DNA of 64,000 bases, taken from an uncultured Clostridia bacterium. Its GTDB lineage: Bacteria; Bacillota; Clostridia; TANB77; CAG-508. Numbering within the stretch: the stretch's first letter is position 1; every line of letters begins with the position of its first letter. The notes under the pieces are model-generated. The model did no database searches and was not told the DNA's origin. It was given only the letters and a program-made list of their open reading frames with translations. A program made the translations under genes and the position numbers. Below, piece by piece: positions 33,559-58,378 of the stretch. The stretch spans positions 71,236-135,235 of the forward strand of contig CAKOTX010000003.1 of the NCBI GenBank assembly GCA_934120315.1, written 5' to 3'.

Positions 33559-34038
33559 TTAATGATTGTCAATAAAATTGCTTACAAGCTGTAAGATTTT
33601 ACCCGTGTTAGTAACATACTTACGTGGTACCATGTTTCTAACATTTTTTAATGCTTCAGGTAATTCAGAAACATCTTGAATTCCTATAATATATCCTGCA
33701 TCATTAAATGATTTTATTATGTCTAATTGATGGTCATTTACATGTTCTTTATATTTTTTTAAACGTGGCACTGCGATTACTTTTTTTCCTTGCTCAATTG
33801 CAGTTATAATTGAACCTACTCCACCATGCGTTATAACTAAATCCGCTTGTTTTACTAGTTCTTTCATTTTTTCAACTGGAACTTGGTCATATATTTGCAT
33901 ATCTGGACTTTCAAATTTTGTATAACCTTTTTGTACTACCACTTCATCTTTTATATTTCCATTATCTATATTTTTTTGTACTTCTTCTAATAGTCTATGA
34001 AAACTATTATTTTGCGTTCCTAATAATACTAATGTCAT
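33559..34038 (-). CDS. Alg13-like / PssE-Cps14G family glycosyltransferase subunit (GT28 C-terminal domain)
   Basis: MTLVLLGTQNNSFHRLL ... ITHGGVGSI motif. The start is taken at ATG 34038 (TAATG overlap with the upstream stop); the ORF-track start is 34095. Confidence 0.7.
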   Translation of the reverse strand: MTLVLLGTQNNSFHRLLEEVQKNIDNGNIKDEVVVQKGYTKFESPDMQIYDQVPVEKMKELVKQADLVITHGGVGSIITAIEQGKKVIAVPRLKKYKEHVNDHQLDIIKSFNDAGYIIGIQDVSELPEALKNVRNMVPRKYVTNTGKILQLVSNFIDNH

Positions 34039-34514
34039 TAATAAATTGCACCTCCATATACAGCTTTTGGGTATAATTTTAGCATTTCTTCCCACTGCAC
34101 AATAAATAAATCTGCAATTGGATATATTAATCTTCCTGTTGCAGTTTTTCTATTTCTGTTTGCAAATGTTTCTATATATATTATTTTACTTCCAAACAAT
34201 TTTCCTAAATAACACATTGGTCCTGCTGTATGTGTTCCTGTTGTTACAATATATTTAGGTCTTATTTTAAAATACAAGTATATTGTTTTTAAGCACAAAT
34301 ATGTATATACAAAAATATATCTTATTAATTTTTTTCTTGTTCCATATGGTAAATATGATATTTTATCTCCATATTTTTCTTTTAGGCCTTTTGTTGATTC
34401 ATCTTTCTCTGTTATTATATGATAATCATATTTCTCAAATATTGGACTTAATTGTTGTAATTCATTAAAGTGTCCACCTGTACTTGATATAAATAATACT
34501 TTTTTCTTTTTCAT
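34038..34514 (-). CDS. Alg14-like / PssD-Cps14F family glycosyltransferase membrane-associated subunit
   Basis: KVLFISSTGGHFNELQQL N-terminus and ...TTGTHTAGPMC, typical of Alg14-like partners of Alg13-like subunits. Translationally coupled to the downstream gene. Confidence 0.7.
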   Translation of the reverse strand: MKKKKVLFISSTGGHFNELQQLSPIFEKYDYHIITEKDESTKGLKEKYGDKISYLPYGTRKKLIRYIFVYTYLCLKTIYLYFKIRPKYIVTTGTHTAGPMCYLGKLFGSKIIYIETFANRNRKTATGRLIYPIADLFIVQWEEMLKLYPKAVYGGAIY

Positions 34515-34593
34515 ATTTTTCTCTTTTCTTACATTTTTCTGTTTTTAATATACACCATTTTCTTTTTTTATTCAAGACACTCATAAAATTTTA

Positions 34594-34639
34594 CAAAAAA
34601 TAACCTTACAATAAAATTTCATCAATTTTGTAAAGTTAT
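34594..34639 (-). terminator. Rho-independent terminator of the toxin gene
   Basis: The minus-strand RNA forms a 12-bp stem (AUAACUUUACAA / UUGUAAGGUUAU, one G-U wobble that is a C-A mismatch on the plus strand), followed by UUUUUU. Confidence 0.65.
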
Positions 34640-34658
34640 TTTTTATCCTCAATATAAT

Positions 34659-35138
34659 TTAGTTTTTATTTAATAGCAATTTTTTCATCTTCACAATATC
34701 ATAAAACGGAATGTTGATTCCTCTTTCAGCTAACTCTACAACCCTAAGAGATGTAATGATAACGTTATCTCTAACCGTAGTTGGAATTTCAACATCTATA
34801 TTCGAATTAACATACTTATTTTCTATGTATTCTTCTGTTGTTGGAAATATATTTTGAATTAAAAATACAGCCTTTTTTCCTAATACATTTCCAAATACAA
34901 AGTTGTAAACAGGTCTTTTTCCACTTTTGGCTTTTTTTGTTTCATAAAGTTCCTTATATTTTTCATATTTTGTAGATATTGGAACAAACCAAATTATTTC
35001 TTTATTTTTTCTATCTCTAAAACAAAAATAACATGGTCTTTTATTTCCATTTTCTTTATTTACCATTAATCCATAATCCTTAAACACATCAAAAAACTCA
35101 TCTTTTATAAAATAAAATTTTCCATCTTCTATTACCAT
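34659..35138 (-). CDS. Type III toxin-antitoxin system toxin, ToxN/AbiQ/CptN-like endoribonuclease
   Basis: 159-aa protein with a ToxN-like layout: KFYFIKDEFFDVFKDYGL, KRPCYFCF, WFVPISTKYEKYK, LIQNIFPTTEEYI. A tandem RNA repeat array plus a leaky terminator lies immediately upstream on the same strand. Confidence 0.72.
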   Translation of the reverse strand: MVIEDGKFYFIKDEFFDVFKDYGLMVNKENGNKRPCYFCFRDRKNKEIIWFVPISTKYEKYKELYETKKAKSGKRPVYNFVFGNVLGKKAVFLIQNIFPTTEEYIENKYVNSNIDVEIPTTVRDNVIITSLRVVELAERGINIPFYDIVKMKKLLLNKN

Positions 35139-35166
35139 TTTTATTCCATCTCTCCTTTACGAAAAT

Positions 35167-35192
35167 ATGGGACCTATTTTTATAGACCCCAT
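35167..35192 (-). terminator. Intra-operon (leaky) terminator between the antitoxin repeats and the toxin gene
   Basis: Minus-strand RNA AUGGGGUCUAU AAAA AUAGGUCCCAU forms 11 bp including 2 G-U wobbles (A-C mismatches on the plus strand), followed by AUUUUC. Confidence 0.65.
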
Positions 35193-35206
35193 ATTTCACT
35201 ATAATA

Positions 35207-35309
35207 ACATTTTTCCACCTGCACATTTATATCTCGCAAGCAGGGTTGCGGTTCACATTCTCTCACCTATAAATTTATATTTCGCAAATAGGGTTGCGGT
35301 TCACATTTT
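35207..35309 (-). ncRNA. Type III antitoxin RNA: 2.1 tandem 48-nt repeats (ToxI/CptI-like)
   Basis: Minus-sense repeat 1 (35309..35262) is aaaatgtgaaccgcaaccctatttgcgaaatataaatttataggtgag. Repeat 2 (35261..35214) is agaatgtgaaccgcaaccctgcttgcgagatataaatgtgcaggtgga. A partial third repeat, aaaatgt, follows. 40 of 48 positions are identical, and compensatory changes CCTAT/ATAGG versus CCTGC/GCAGG are present. Confidence 0.75.
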
Positions 35310-35314
35310 AATTA

Positions 35315-35377
35315 TAGTAGATATTAAATATCTACTACTATTGTATTCATTATACACACTTTTTATTATTTTTTCAA
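35315..35377 (-). promoter_or_regulatory. Promoter of the type III TA operon plus a perfect 10-bp inverted repeat at the 5' end of the transcript
   Basis: Minus strand reads TTGAAA (35377..35372), 17 nt, TATAAT (35354..35349). The palindrome tagtagatat-taa-atatctacta at 35315..35337 lies between the predicted TSS and repeat 1. Confidence 0.55.
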
Positions 35378-35446
35378 TAGTTTTATTATAATTTTTTATT
35401 CAATTTTTATATTTTTAGTATATAATATCATTATGGGAGGTAGAAC

Positions 35447-36014: not shown

Positions 36015-36689
36015 CTAAGACAGAAGATTTTTAATTTTTCCATCTTCTATTTGTATAATTCTATCTGCCAATTTTGCAATTTCCAAATTATGAGTAATCA
36101 TAATGATGGTTTGTTTATATTCTTTATTGGCTTTTTTTAATAGTTGTATAATCTCATTACTTGATTTAGAATCTAGGTTACCAGTTGGTTCATCAGCTAA
36201 AATAATGGTTGGTTCTATTATTAAAGCTCTACCAATAGCTACTTTTTGTTGTTGGCCTCCTGATAATTCATTTGGTAAGTGTTTTCTTCTATTATCTATA
36301 CCTAAAAATTTCAATATTTCTTCTAGCTTTACTTTATCTATTTTTTTCTTATCAAGTTCAATAGGTAATGTTATATTTTCTTCTACATTTAAAGTAGGAA
36401 TCAAATTATAAAATTGATATATAATTCCTATCTTTTGTCTTCTTAATATTGTCAAATCCTTTTTATTCATTTCATACATATTTTTGTCATAAAAATATAC
36501 TTTCCCACTAGTTGGCTTTTCTAAGCCTGCAATTGTATGTAAAAGAGTGGATTTTCCACTTCCAGAAGGACCTATTATTGCAAGAAACTCTCCTTCTTCA
36601 ACTTCAAAAGAAATGTCATTTAGAGCAATAACTTTTGCATCACCTTTTCCATAAATTTTACTCAAATTTTCTACTTTTAAAATTTTCAT
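36015..36689 (-). CDS. ABC transporter ATP-binding protein (MacB/LolD-like)
   Basis: Walker [10 protein letters not shown], signature LSGGQQQK, Walker [12 protein letters not shown]. Confidence 0.9.
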
Positions 36690-36707
36690 AATTTTTCTCC
36701 TATAATT

Positions 36708-38981
36708 TTATTCTTCTTTTATAAATTTTACTGAATATATTGCTATAATCAAAGATATTATAAATAGTAATAAAATAAATATACCTATACTAGTAAATGG
36801 AATTAATATTTTATCTAATATAATTGTTTTTGTCATAGATTTTATAATCGCATATAAAATAGGAATTGACAAAACAATTGAAATTATTGTTGCTTTTATA
36901 AACATATAGATATTTTCATATATTAGTATTTTAATTATATTTTCTTTAGTAGCACCTAATCTTGATAATGCTTTAAATTCTTCTTCTCTTTCACATAGAC
37001 TTGCATTTATTATATTTATAGAACTTATTATTCCAATAATTATAATCGTTAAAATAATAGTTTGTAATATTAATTCTAGAACATTCGCATAAATTATTTT
37101 TTCTTGATTTTCTAAGGAATAATATTTTGCCGAAATGTCAGTATTTTGGTTTTGAATAATATTATCCATATAATTTGAAAAATTAATTATGTTTCCACAT
37201 TTGATTTTAACAAAATTTCCACTATTACTTGTATTTCCAAAATGCATCCATATATTTTGTTGATTGACGCCCTTTGGATGAATATTTATTTTTTCTTTTA
37301 TCTTATTAAATGTGTCCATGTTTGTAAAAATTGTTATCTTTTCTGTATTATTTATTTCTTTAAATCCACTAGGAAGTTTTTCTGTCAAAACAAAATTTTC
37401 TTTTAAAGTTTCATCATCAATTATTTCATATGACGCTTCTTCATCAACATAATTGCAATAAACTATTTTAAAATTAAAATCATAATTTGTTTCAAATGCA
37501 GTATAATATTTATATACATATTCTGTTTTTCCTTCTTTTTGAGTAATGTTATTATAAATGATATAATCCCCATTATTAGCATTTAGATCAGTTATATAAT
37601 TGGTATAAGATTTATCATCTAAGCCAATTATTCTGATTGGAAAATGCAACGAATCTGCATATCTGCAATTTGCTATAAGCACATCTTCTGGTTCTACTAA
37701 AGCATATAAGCCCATTACCTTATATTCTAAATATTCAATTTTATCACTAGAATTTGCAGCATAGTTATCAAGTATAGTTTTGTAATATTTATTTGAATTT
37801 TCATTAAGTTCTAATTCAGCATCAACATCATATTCATCAATTAAATTTGCTGCTACTTTTTCATAATTTATATATGTAGAAATTGTAATATATGAAGTCA
37901 TACATATTACAAGTAAAATTGTTATAATTTTATATTTATTTTTATTCCTCTTTAAATTCTTTAAAGCCAATTTTCCTTCTATATTAAAATGTTTTTCGAA
38001 AATAGAATTATTTGTTTGAGATTTTATTTGTTTGTTGTTTTTAATTCCTTGTATAACAGATGCGCTACTTGCTCTTATGCTTGGAATTAATGATGATATA
38101 TAAATATTAATAATTATTATAACAAATGATATGATTATATATTTAATATCTAACACTAATTTAAAATTGTATATAGTAGAAACTACTATATTATTCAAAA
38201 GTTTTAATAGCAAATCAGAGCAAAGATAAGAAAGTAGAAAGCCTATAATTATTCCAATTATTCCTATAATAATATTTTCTAAAAATGTCATCTTTAATAT
38301 TTGACCTTCTGTTGCTCCTATGCTGTTTAATACTGCATAATCTTTTTTTCTTTCATTAATAGTTATTAAAAACGCATTATATAATATTATGATTGATAAA
38401 ATTGAGAAAATTAACAATATAATTACAAGCAGTATATCTGCGACATATGTGAAATTTAGTCTAGCTTGACATGTTGGGACACTATCAGCATAACCATTTG
38501 GAATGATAGATACATCTATTAGTCCATAAGAGTTGAGCAATTTTGTGTTTAATTCGCAGTTTTCACTTGTTTCAATATATGTTAAATTTAAAGTTTCTAA
38601 TATGTCATTTGTATAGGCACACGTTTTTTTATAATTGTCATATTTAATATATATATTTATTCCATCAGTAATTTGGAAAGAATCTGGTAAATTATCTATT
38701 TCATATAATTGTCCTTCATTATTTTCTTGTAAATAAATTTGAGCAATATATTCTTTAGTTTTAATTTTATTAAGCCTGTCCAAATTTATATTTTTTATCG
38801 AAAAATAATAGTCATTATATTTTTGTGCAATATTTTCTTTAAAACTTTTGCCAATACTAGTCGCCACCAAAAGTGTTGCTATTATGAGAAATGAGCATAA
38901 TGCTATTGAAATTGTAGTATATATTGTTCTTTTTATATTTTTTCTAATATTATTAAAGGTTAATTTGGTTTCGATTTTCAT
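36708..38981 (-). CDS. FtsX-domain ABC transporter permease (two FtsX-type TM bundles, large extracytoplasmic domain)
   Basis: 757 aa. TM clusters sit near residues 20-40, 180-300 and 340-360, plus a C-terminal 4-TM bundle, separated by about 270 aa of soluble sequence. It lies downstream of the MacB-like ATPase. Confidence 0.75.
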   Translation of the reverse strand: MKIETKLTFNNIRKNIKRTIYTTISIALCSFLIIATLLVATSIGKSFKENIAQKYNDYYFSIKNINLDRLNKIKTKEYIAQIYLQENNEGQLYEIDNLPDSFQITDGINIYIKYDNYKKTCAYTNDILETLNLTYIETSENCELNTKLLNSYGLIDVSIIPNGYADSVPTCQARLNFTYVADILLVIILLIFSILSIIILYNAFLITINERKKDYAVLNSIGATEGQILKMTFLENIIIGIIGIIIGFLLSYLCSDLLLKLLNNIVVSTIYNFKLVLDIKYIIISFVIIIINIYISSLIPSIRASSASVIQGIKNNKQIKSQTNNSIFEKHFNIEGKLALKNLKRNKNKYKIITILLVICMTSYITISTYINYEKVAANLIDEYDVDAELELNENSNKYYKTILDNYAANSSDKIEYLEYKVMGLYALVEPEDVLIANCRYADSLHFPIRIIGLDDKSYTNYITDLNANNGDYIIYNNITQKEGKTEYVYKYYTAFETNYDFNFKIVYCNYVDEEASYEIIDDETLKENFVLTEKLPSGFKEINNTEKITIFTNMDTFNKIKEKINIHPKGVNQQNIWMHFGNTSNSGNFVKIKCGNIINFSNYMDNIIQNQNTDISAKYYSLENQEKIIYANVLELILQTIILTIIIIGIISSINIINASLCEREEEFKALSRLGATKENIIKILIYENIYMFIKATIISIVLSIPILYAIIKSMTKTIILDKILIPFTSIGIFILLLFIISLIIAIYSVKFIKEE

Positions 38982-39048: not shown

Positions 39049-39930
39049 TTATGCTCTTGGATGAGCTTTTTTATATACATTTTTTAATGATTCATCTTGG
39101 AATTGCATATATATTTGTGTTGATAAAATATCAGAATGTCCTAACATCATTTGAATTGATTTTAAATCTGCTCCATTTTGTAATAAATGTGTTGCAAATG
39201 AATGTCTTAAAACATGTGGTGTGATATCTTTATCTATATGTGCTTGGTCTTTATAATATTTTATGATTTTCCAAAATCCTTGTCTTGTTAAACGTTGTCC
39301 ATTTACATTTACGAATAGTGCTTTTTCATTTTCATCTTTAATCATTGTTGGCCTTGCATCTACAACATATTCTTTTAATGCTTTTAATGACATATTTCCC
39401 ATTGGAACTGTTCTTTCTTTTTTACCATTTCTGCATGTTGCATAACCTGTTTCTAAATTTACATCTTCTACATTTAATGAGATTATTTCTGTAACTCTCA
39501 TTCCTGTAGCATATGCAAATTCTAGCATTGCTTTATCTCTAGTTCCTTTTAAATCAACATCTTTTGGTTGGTCTAATAATAATGCAACTTCACTTGATGT
39601 TAATACACTTGGTACTCTTTTTTCAATTTTAGGTGATTGAATTCCTTCTGTTGGATCTTTTTCTACAACTTTGTTTTTTGCTTCATATTGATAGAATGAT
39701 CTAATTGATGCTAATCCTCTTGATATTGTTGATGGTTTTTTTCCTATTTCTTGCATATGTGATATATATTCTTTTATTCCATCATCTGTAATTTCTACAT
39801 AATTTTCTCCATTGTCTTCTATATATTTTTCAAATTGCTTTAAATCCCTTTTATATGATTGAAGTGTGTTTAAAGACACTTTCTTATCATTTTCTAAAAA
39901 TCCAAAAAATAAGTTTAATTGTTCTTCCAT
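39049..39930 (-). CDS. xerD: Tyrosine recombinase XerD
   Basis: SLNTLQSYKRDL N-terminal core-binding domain; catalytic motifs ATGMRVTE, HVLRHSFATHLL and LGHSDILSTQIY. The start is at ATG 39930 after GGTGGGGG; the ORF-track GTG start at 39942 lies inside the RBS. Confidence 0.88.
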   Translation of the reverse strand: MEEQLNLFFGFLENDKKVSLNTLQSYKRDLKQFEKYIEDNGENYVEITDDGIKEYISHMQEIGKKPSTISRGLASIRSFYQYEAKNKVVEKDPTEGIQSPKIEKRVPSVLTSSEVALLLDQPKDVDLKGTRDKAMLEFAYATGMRVTEIISLNVEDVNLETGYATCRNGKKERTVPMGNMSLKALKEYVVDARPTMIKDENEKALFVNVNGQRLTRQGFWKIIKYYKDQAHIDKDITPHVLRHSFATHLLQNGADLKSIQMMLGHSDILSTQIYMQFQDESLKNVYKKAHPRA

Positions 39931-40045
39931 TTTTTCCCCCACCTATGATTAATTTTATTGTCTTATATCTTTTATTTTACATAACTGATATACTCCTATG
40001 TTATATCAAATTTTCATCCAAATGTAAATAGCTTTTACCCATTTT

Positions 40046-58303: not shown

Positions 58304-58378
58304 TGGCAGGGGTACTAGGATTCGAACCCAGACAAGCGGTTTTGGAGACCGATGTGCTACCATTAACACTATGCCCCT
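58304..58378 (-). tRNA. trnW: tRNA-Trp (anticodon CCA), with encoded 3' CCA
   Basis: Minus-strand sequence AGGGGCATAGTGTTAATGGTAGCACATCGGTCTCCAAAACCGCTTGTCTGGGTTCGAATCCTAGTACCCCTGCCA folds as a cloverleaf with anticodon loop CU-CCA-AA and a GTTCGAATC T-loop. There is a C6:A67 mismatch in the acceptor stem. A terminator hairpin plus T-run lies downstream at about 58262..58296. Confidence 0.85.

Follow-up and report, generated by a model that had tools for sequence, protein, structure and literature searches.

Among type III toxin-antitoxin modules, the cptIN family is typified by CptIN of Eubacterium rectale, deposited in the PDB as 4RMO, and the active-site residues of its toxin (CptN_Er) have been described by Rao et al. 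2015 (PMC4627078). Membership of the family is decided by homology of the toxin sequence. Published cptIN loci have repeat units of 40-48 nucleotides (nt) in 1.9-3.4 copies and toxins of 45-213 amino acids (aa), and the criteria used to recognize such loci are a promoter (preferred, not strict), tandem repeats, a palindromic terminator and a toxin (Blower et al. 2012, PMC3401426). The locus considered here lies on the minus strand of a 64-kb stretch of DNA from an uncultured Clostridia bacterium (contig CAKOTX010000003.1), which is referred to below as the window. All four components are present in the required order, and with its 48-nt units, 2.1 copies and a 159-aa toxin the locus keeps to the published ranges. 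The locus is very probably an intact, self-contained CptIN-family cassette that works by the mechanism set out below; as such it is a module of an already described kind, belonging to the known cptIN family and not to a new category. A preliminary description, made from the sequence alone, had placed it among the type III modules, nearer CptIN than ToxIN and with CptIN-like repeat length and number, and that placement stands on the grounds of the NCBIfam family model, the sequence and fold of 4RMO, and the published locus criteria.

Read along the minus strand, the cassette runs from the promoter through a 5' hairpin, two repeats (R1 and R2), a stub of a third unit, an intergenic hairpin, a Shine-Dalgarno (SD) sequence and the open reading frame (ORF) of the toxin with its ATG to a final hairpin, as follows:

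35349..35377, minus strand: predicted sigma-70-type promoter, 11/12 consensus positions (-35 box TTGAAA at 35377..35372, 17-nt spacer, -10 box TATAAT at 35354..35349)
35314..35338, minus strand: 5' leader hairpin, 11 bp perfect with a 3-nt loop, -10.9 kcal/mol, z -4.2, 0/200 shuffles equally stable
35262..35309, minus strand: CptI antitoxin unit R1, 48 nt, from Tandem Repeats Finder (TRF) and pseudoknot covariation
35214..35261, minus strand: CptI antitoxin unit R2, 48 nt, containing AUAUAAAUG, 81% identical to R1
35205..35213, minus strand: third-unit stub AAAAUGUUA, which provides the 3' junction of R2 and is found in all related leaders
35162..35197, minus strand: intergenic hairpin followed by UUUUCG, a presumed partial terminator, -16.4 to -17 kcal/mol, z -3.5
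35141..35155, minus strand: ribosome-binding region read from the sequence, with GGAG at 35155..35152 and a mini-ORF AUG-GAA-UAA at 35149..35141
34659..35138, minus strand: cptN, encoding a 159-aa CptN-family endoribonuclease toxin (NCBIfam, PDB 4RMO, AlphaFold2 and Foldseek)
34595..34644, minus strand: hairpin and U-run after the toxin gene, predicted terminator of the unit, 17-bp arms, -18.6 kcal/mol, z -4.8
34655..35420, minus strand: extent of the cassette conserved between species, ~750 bp, from blastn against 80 species loci

The toxin is identified by three independent tests. NCBIfam model NF047359 (type III toxin-antitoxin system CptIN family toxin, an equivalog) matches the ORF at E 2.2e-46 and 157.4 bits against a cutoff of 90, the alignment spanning profile positions 1-149 of 150; a phmmer search of PDB sequences returns CptN of E. 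rectale (4RMO, E 6.6e-17) as the sole match; and an AlphaFold2 model built from a 40-sequence alignment covering both clades (predicted local distance difference test 85.8, predicted template modelling (TM) score 0.84) has 4RMO_A as its best Foldseek match (E 2.5e-10, TM 0.82/0.84, root-mean-square deviation 2.6), with ToxN following at TM 0.60-0.65 and MazF lower. The model predicts the CptN fold, a Kid/MazF-like twisted β-sheet with helices that lacks the kinked helix of ToxN. The model search and the structural comparison with CptN had both been proposed in advance and were both run; the "ToxN-like landmarks" claimed along with them were not borne out, as a Pfam scan of the ORF gave no ToxN match (PF13958, ToxN_toxin) even at E <= 10 and returned only a sub-threshold match to DUF1132. 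S55-T56-K57 aligns with the triad S51-S52-R53 of CptN_Er and Y109 with its stacking Tyr104; S55 and Y109 are invariant in the 40-sequence alignment. The suggestion of a diverged subfamily appears fair in a weak sense only, because identity to the E. rectale clade of 30-35% (26% over the structural alignment) resembles the 35-44% found among the three experimentally validated CptN toxins themselves. The family comprises 953 clusters at 50% identity with E <= 1e-3.

The tandem repeat upstream of the toxin is called by TRF with a period of 48 over 35216..35307, 86% matches and a score of 142, and with 2.1 copies when the leader is taken alone. It is not a chance repeat, because in addition to this score a 25-nt degenerate core pattern matches just R1 and R2 in the 64 kb (0 expected). 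The register of R1 begins at the first A of AAAAUGUG, which was chosen for convenience and not as a cut site. No second copy of either the RNA or the toxin is present within the window, and no Rfam family was found for the repeats, whether the locus was searched at permissive E-values or the whole window at gathering thresholds, the weak matches being chance. Such loci go unannotated in gut Clostridia because the relatives are labelled "hypothetical protein" and the RNA is in no Rfam family; as an annotation the locus is routine, the NCBI family model already recognizing the toxin. The toxin of close relatives is still labelled "hypothetical protein" in public records.

An alignment of 58 distinct units gives an H-type pseudoknot, with stem 1 (S1) at 12-16/23-27, loop 1 (L1) formed by an invariant C17, stem 2 (S2) at 18-22/40-44 and a long loop (L2) at 28-39. 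Standard pairs fill 98.8% of its cells versus 24-53% with slid partners, 7/10 pairs show compensatory changes (GCAA/UUGC to GGAG/CUCC and UAU/AUA to UGC/GCA among them), and 0/500 shuffles attain the observed values; the pseudoknot was derived from the same sequences that were used to test it, which biases the comparison with the slid controls in its favor. Both units of the window keep all of the pairs and the invariant positions. An S1 extended by two pairs was considered and rejected, the outermost pair being present in 3/57 units and the next in 34/58.

The layout reported for CptI of E. rectale, a 1-nt L1 and a long, A-rich L2, is thus retained in the window units. The E. rectale locus was recovered with 2.1 copies of a 45-nt unit, the copies being 100% identical, and its L2 reads A27-UAUAAAUG-35 in the register of the crystal structure. 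Positions 30-38 of R2 hold the same nine bases, AUAUAAAUG, as the L2 of E. rectale CptI (CptI_Er; A27-G35), and R1 reads AUAUAAAUU there. Mutagenesis of CptI_Er has shown that changing A29 or U30 abolishes antitoxicity; the equivalent of A29 is A in 55/55 loci, and that of U30 is U in 55/55 R2 and 42/55 R1. The A-minor tertiary contacts of the window RNA are predicted only. The covariation supports the CptI pseudoknot, and the loop string of the A-minor twist is conserved family-wide, beyond the single crystallized example.

For comparison across species, a one-genome-per-species scan yielded 80 loci, all from metagenome-assembled genomes of gut Clostridia, with toxins 65-92% identical to that of the window. 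A 46-48-nt repeat in 1.9-2.3 copies is found upstream by TRF in 74/80; the remaining six, missed because their units differ too much, are also two-unit by alignment. Two full units and the stub are present in 73/73 full-length distinct leaders, R2 measures 48 nt in 74/74 distinct leaders, and every full-length leader shares the plan of the window, from promoter, 5' hairpin, two units and stub to hairpin, SD and ATG. The toxin ORF is intact in 79/80 loci (155-167 aa), and its ratio of nonsynonymous to synonymous substitution relative to the window has a median of 0.14 and a maximum of 0.32. The median identity of the repeat region is 88.5% versus 43% at synonymous sites, with the repeats more conserved in 72/72 comparisons; toxin and RNA are both under purifying selection. 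In blastn of the window region against the 80 loci the upper ends fall at 35354-35422 (35301 in L006, which is cut by its contig end) and the lower ends mostly at 34636-34696, with seven shorter alignments stopping at 34786-34813. Cross-species similarity therefore ends near the stop codon of the toxin gene, ~34650-34680, and at ~35355-35420 on the other side.

It could be argued that the repeats are not an antitoxin but the cis-regulatory leader, attenuator- or riboswitch-like, of an unrelated gene, or a repeat arisen by chance. The lack of an Rfam match would suit this view, as would the resemblance of a leader followed by a terminator hairpin to an attenuator. It is hardly credible, however, and is effectively refuted by the three tests that identify the toxin as CptN, by the pseudoknot layout and loop string that the units share with crystallized CptI, and by the retention of exactly two units and a junction stub in 80 species.

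The signals around the repeats are consistent with a cassette that is transcribed as one unit. The near-consensus promoter noted earlier, TTGAAA-17-TATAAT, holds up: sigma-70-like sites are not enriched across the AT-rich window (7 found vs 9.7 expected), and the call draws its weight from TTGAY-17-TATAAT being conserved at the matching position in 73 related leaders. Between the -10 box and R1, ~4 nt after the presumptive transcription start and 4 nt before the first repeat, lies the 5' leader hairpin, a feature that the preliminary description did not mention. It is found in every related leader with differing sequences and shows compensatory changes in 4/6 consensus pairs; it presumably has a role in the cassette. 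The intergenic hairpin with its short U tract had been recognized between array and ORF, but with a stem of 11 bp; the stem has 13 bp (two of them G-U) and is extendable to 16 bp. A hairpin occupies this position in all loci, in the second clade with a different sequence and a canonical T6 tract, and by analogy with ToxIN it is presumed to be a partial terminator that fixes the ratio of antitoxin to toxin transcripts. The separate terminator proposed after the ORF was also found, its arms (34595-34611 and 34628-34644) being 94% complementary; this hairpin falls outside the cassette conserved between species and is kept in the deletion-scar alleles described below. Ahead of the toxin gene the mini-ORF of two codons separates GGAG from the ATG, and this arrangement may be a means of holding toxin translation low. 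Several relatives have AUG-UAG where the window has the mini-ORF, and others have an SD-ATG spacing of 6-10 nt.

The junctions between units required more revision. The R1/R2 junction reads GAG|AGAAUGU, not GAG|AAAAUGU as first reported, and the sequence common to the three junctions lies 3' of the boundary at which cutting had been proposed. The two 48-nt repeats themselves are confirmed by TRF; the start of the third unit, given earlier as 7 nt, is conserved over 9-11 nt. In 73 leaders none of the three junctions varies at A3, A4 or U5, and G6, U7 and A9 are 98% conserved. Because of this three-junction conservation, and because the GGUGNN that precedes the earlier boundary is missing from the first junction, the processing determinant is taken to be (A/C)(A/G)AAUGUNA. 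By analogy with GA|AA in CptI_Er, CptN most likely cuts after A3, within AAAU, which would put the cuts at 35307|35306, 35259|35258 and 35211|35210; the motif is given by conservation, and from it we infer the position of the cut. A cut after A9 (UGUNA|), modelled on UGA|A of E. rectale, is disfavored, as several stubs lack G6-A9.

Taken together, these features suggest the following mechanism, in which the inhibition of the toxin can be transferred from CptIN of E. rectale (CptIN_Er) with good confidence, by analogy. A constitutive sigma-70-type promoter would drive a single transcript that opens with the stable 5' hairpin, covers two 48-nt units and the initial 9 nt of another, and then reaches the strong hairpin with its short U tract. 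Most transcripts probably stop at this intergenic hairpin, and because of this the antitoxin RNA would outnumber the toxin mRNA; read-through would yield the mRNA of CptN, an endoribonuclease of 159 aa with a predicted Kid/MazF-like fold. CptN would then cut the repeat precursor at (A/C)(A/G)AAUGUNA, most likely inside AAAU, releasing two 48-nt H-type pseudoknot RNAs that stay on the toxin and block its active site, probably in a closed ring of 2 protein : 2 RNA like that of E. rectale. Should the supply of the short-lived RNA stop, free CptN would cleave cellular RNA and cause growth arrest. The role of the cassette is more likely the stabilization of its carrier DNA (addiction) than phage defense, which is proven for other type III systems and not for this family.

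Several observations weigh against this reading of the locus. The third residue of the triad is Lys and not Arg, a conservative change, with Arg present in one relative. Asp81 and Ser85, which specify adenine in CptN_Er and are a feature of that toxin not shown to define the cptIN family, align with Val85 and Ala90 and are not conserved; the cleavage specificity may therefore differ, which fits both the different junction sequence and the reported co-evolution of toxin and RNA. A simple terminator scan did not call the intergenic hairpin at 35162..35197, because only 4 U follow it. The GGAG-to-ATG distance of 13 nt may make translation of the toxin weak. R1 and R2 may not both be active antitoxins, because they are 81% identical where described cptI repeats are near-identical. 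Finally, the toxin is evidently dispensable, because many genomes of the same species have lost it.

This loss can be followed in conspecific contigs, which were recognized by an identical Alg14 or flavin-reductase protein. At the equivalent of 34515..35446 four states occur: an intact cassette, a 98-aa toxin, a 28-nt scar and a larger deletion (allelic-series coordinates L092:3558-3854, L091:3759-4000 and L094:3872-4000). The 98-aa toxin (L092) arose by in-frame deletions of 41 and 20 aa that take out the Ser-Thr-Lys triad and Tyr109 and leave the promoter and both repeats intact; each deletion is bordered by short direct repeats (AAAAGACC and TTCCAAC[A/T]AC). Scar alleles keep only 28 nt of R2 and stub (27/28 identical, E ~1e-9). 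Such "empty" sites were considered as virgin insertion sites and rejected; they are products of loss, because the R2/stub scar is retained. Among 24 long contigs with identical Alg14, ~13 carry the 28-nt scar, 8 the 98-aa toxin, 2 the larger deletion and only 1 an intact toxin. The order of loss, toxin first, is as predicted for a toxin-antitoxin pair, and the series offers a population view of module decay, in which the toxin goes first by microhomology deletions.

With only 1 of these 24 contigs holding an intact toxin, and with the long SD-ATG spacing, the copy in the window might be regarded as a silent relic, intact in appearance but unexpressed or non-toxic. This is quite improbable, as the full-length ORF carries every family-invariant residue, the promoter scores 11/12, both repeats keep their pairs and invariant positions, the identical protein is present on 16 contigs, and an intact toxin ORF of 158-159 aa is retained by most contigs whose flavin reductase is identical. 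What the series does show is that the cassette is accessory and often lost. It is accessory because its contexts differ between species and because conspecific contigs carry scars or a deleted toxin, and the earlier view of it as an accessory unit set between a split glycosyltransferase pair and a flavin reductase gene agrees with these findings.

The immediate neighbors are the Alg14-like/Alg13-like glycosyltransferase pair on one side and the divergent flavin reductase on the other; further downstream are FtsEX and two M23 peptidases, and further upstream an ATP-binding cassette (ABC) transporter and a XerC/D-like recombinase. The neighbors of the window cassette were found in 0/80 of the other species, and no compositional anomaly was found at the cassette. 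The glycosyltransferase (33559..34514) is a two-gene split enzyme made up of an Alg14-like ORF (34038..34514) and a Glyco_tran_28_C/Alg13-like ORF, the latter listed mechanically with a GTG start and a 58-nt overlap with the Alg14-like ORF and, in conspecific gene calls, starting at the Alg14 stop (159 aa). On the other flank an ABC ATPase and a 757-aa FtsX-type permease (36015..38981) are missing from the conspecific contig L095 (L095:1649-3066), in which the recombinase gene (XerC/D-like, 39049..39942 in the window) abuts the flavin reductase gene; the pair is thus a second presence/absence polymorphism adjoining the cassette. Over the whole window Rfam gives a single match that exceeds its gathering score, a tRNA at 58307..58378 on the minus strand.

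Links to mobile elements come mainly from other species. Large serine recombinases make up 19/142 of the nearest flanking ORFs of the 80 loci, and by tblastn 29/80 loci carry one, 85-100% identical, that follows the toxin on its own strand at a distance of 120-1650 nt and has Resolvase, Recombinase and Zn_ribbon_recom domains (e.g. L001:3647-5329; L057:3789-5381). The recombinase lies inside a conserved block of ~3 kb that ends ~70 nt past its gene, and it is more conserved than the adjoining toxin. Here cptIN may be cargo of a serine-recombinase element or may mark its integration site. Direct repeats of 16-29 nt, well above shuffled controls, flank the cassette in L025 and L028 (2652 and 3578), L079 (179 and 1010), L051 (2735 and 3485) and L043 (2749 and 3492), and hint at either insertion with target duplication or recombination between duplicated terminators. 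The 64-kb window has no serine recombinase and its cassette no significant flanking repeats; a 12-mer, TTGAATAAAAAA, on both sides of the cassette was rejected as a target-site duplication, since shuffles average 9.7 and reach 13.

In the 2012 survey cptIN was found on chromosomes only (Blower et al., PMC3401426). Homologs of CptN at 30-41% identity, all annotated "hypothetical protein", are present here on plasmids of Megamonas, Clostridium perfringens, Planococcus, Oscillibacter, Fusobacterium and Virgibacillus (NZ_CP048628.1, NZ_CP075965.1, NZ_CP075963.1, NC_019558.1, AP012045.1, NZ_CP084160.1, NZ_CP017963.1). As a side observation, the gene immediately upstream of cptIN in E. rectale-type contigs (L081:399-1328) encodes an RNA ligase (PF09414), which sets it beside a toxin that cuts RNA to cyclic-phosphate ends, an arrangement that may be coincidental.

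These linkages and the decay described above bear on the question of what CptIN systems are for. The cassette may chiefly be a selfish addiction or stabilization element, originally part of a serine-recombinase element, of which the window copy would be a solo chromosomal leftover; this is plausible, if still a little short of likely. It is suggested by the rise in plasmid retention from ~50% to 100% with CptIN_Er, the recombinase in 29/80 species within its conserved block, the contexts that vary by species, the CptN homologs on plasmids and the toxin-first loss within the species. It is opposed by the window itself, which lacks both recombinase and significant flanking repeats; by the frequent loss within the species, which implies that addiction is weak or easily escaped; and by the strong purifying selection over 80 species, which suggests a benefit to host or element beyond drift.

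Abortive infection as the main role, in which a phage that shuts off host transcription would deplete CptI and the freed CptN would kill the cell, is possible but rather unlikely. ToxIN and TenpIN give strong phage resistance and their mechanism would transfer directly, and a Firmicute system may be poorly judged by challenging E. coli with coliphages (Blower et al., PMC3401426). In the published tests, however, neither of two cptIN loci protected E. coli from 6 coliphages, nor did CptIN_Er from >200; a PADLOC scan of the toxin gave no match, no homolog was found among 50,697 phage records, and in the window the cassette is surrounded by housekeeping genes (FtsEX, M23 peptidases, Alg13/14-like glycosyltransferase, flavin reductase), not by a defense island. 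On the phage tests, the PADLOC scan and the phage records, the label "abortive-infection type" given in the preliminary description is not supported. The two roles are not mutually exclusive; stabilization of mobile DNA is somewhat more likely than phage defense, because of the negative phage tests, the stabilized plasmid, the recombinase linkage and the plasmid-borne homologs.

One feature in which the clade stands out is the unlikeness of its two repeats. Identity between R1 and R2 is 81% in the window and averages 78% over 55 loci, and the differences are position-specific: S2 is CCUAU/AUAGG in R1 and CCUGC/GCAGG in R2, and the S2 pair 22-40 is U-A in 48/55 R1 and C-G in 55/55 R2. A 2025 survey reported toxI and cptI repeats to be nearly identical (PMC12283969); the near-identity reported so far for cptIN is not seen at this locus, and it is a descriptive regularity, not a defining criterion. 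It is tempting, if doubtful, to suppose that the functional antitoxin in this clade is a fixed pair of unlike RNAs, each an H-type pseudoknot, that close an asymmetric CptN2-R1-R2 ring and would have stayed different from each other in at least 80 species. A duller alternative, which the data do not exclude, is that R1 and R2 are interchangeable and drift with compensation. If the fixed pair were real, the complex would be a heterotypic 2:2 assembly, and a clade with stably different repeats makes the question testable.

In comparison with CptIN_Er, the closest described system, the window locus has the same order of promoter, ~2.1 repeats, hairpin and toxin, is likewise chromosomal, and shares the predicted toxin fold (TM 0.82-0.84) with its conserved Ser and Tyr active-site positions. 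The RNA is also alike: it is an H-type pseudoknot in which both stems have 5 bp, L1 is a single nucleotide and the A-rich L2 contains AUAUAAAUG, and two full units suit a 2:2 complex. The differences lie in the triad (Ser-Thr-Lys vs Ser-Ser-Arg) and the unconserved equivalents of Asp81/Ser85, the unit length (48 nt vs 45), the junction motif (AAAUGU vs UGAAAG) and the repeat identity (81% vs 100%). The 3 nt by which the window unit is longer come from its long loop (12 nt vs 9) and single-stranded linker (15 nt vs 11), less the spacer that separates S2 from S1' in E. rectale and is absent here. The window also has the conserved 5' hairpin, whereas the repeats of E. rectale begin ~6 nt after the -10 box.

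ToxIN of Pectobacterium atrosepticum, Bacillus thuringiensis and E. coli (2XD0/2XDD, 7D8O) is a more distant relative. It works on the same principle, with a repeat RNA that the toxin processes and that in turn inhibits this endoribonuclease; a terminator again stands between RNA and toxin gene, and the toxins are distantly related in fold (TM 0.60-0.65). However, its ToxI units average only 38 nt, occur in greater number and form 3:3 assemblies, its toxin is the one described by the Pfam ToxN model that finds no match here, and ToxIN is a proven abortive-infection system where CptIN is not. The tenpIN loci with non-identical repeats (PMC12283969, 2025) resemble the window in having two unlike repeats, each able to form a pseudoknot, and an A-stretch that is conserved in the latter half of the unit, but their toxin belongs to a separate family.

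Two plasmid homologs, from Megamonas funiformis (NZ_CP048628.1) and C. perfringens pCP346-91 (NZ_CP075965.1), have toxins of 39-40% identity and ~47-50-nt units upstream with the loop strings AUAUAAAAC, AUAUAAAAG and AUACAAAUG; they differ from the window in being plasmid-borne, and the Megamonas repeats are near-identical. The pCP346-91 array (L099:1249-1449), which accompanies a CptN homolog of 39% identity, has a 97-nt period in 2.1 copies at 99% identity, each 97-nt unit being composed of two unlike sub-units of ~47-50 nt (70-74% alike), so that the pair is duplicated whole as (A-B)(A-B). This array would be a second example of an antitoxin made of a pair. Set against the cptIN systems described so far, the window departs in its consistently unlike repeats, its conserved 5' hairpin and its longer long loop, and the related loci of other species depart in their frequent linkage to a serine recombinase.

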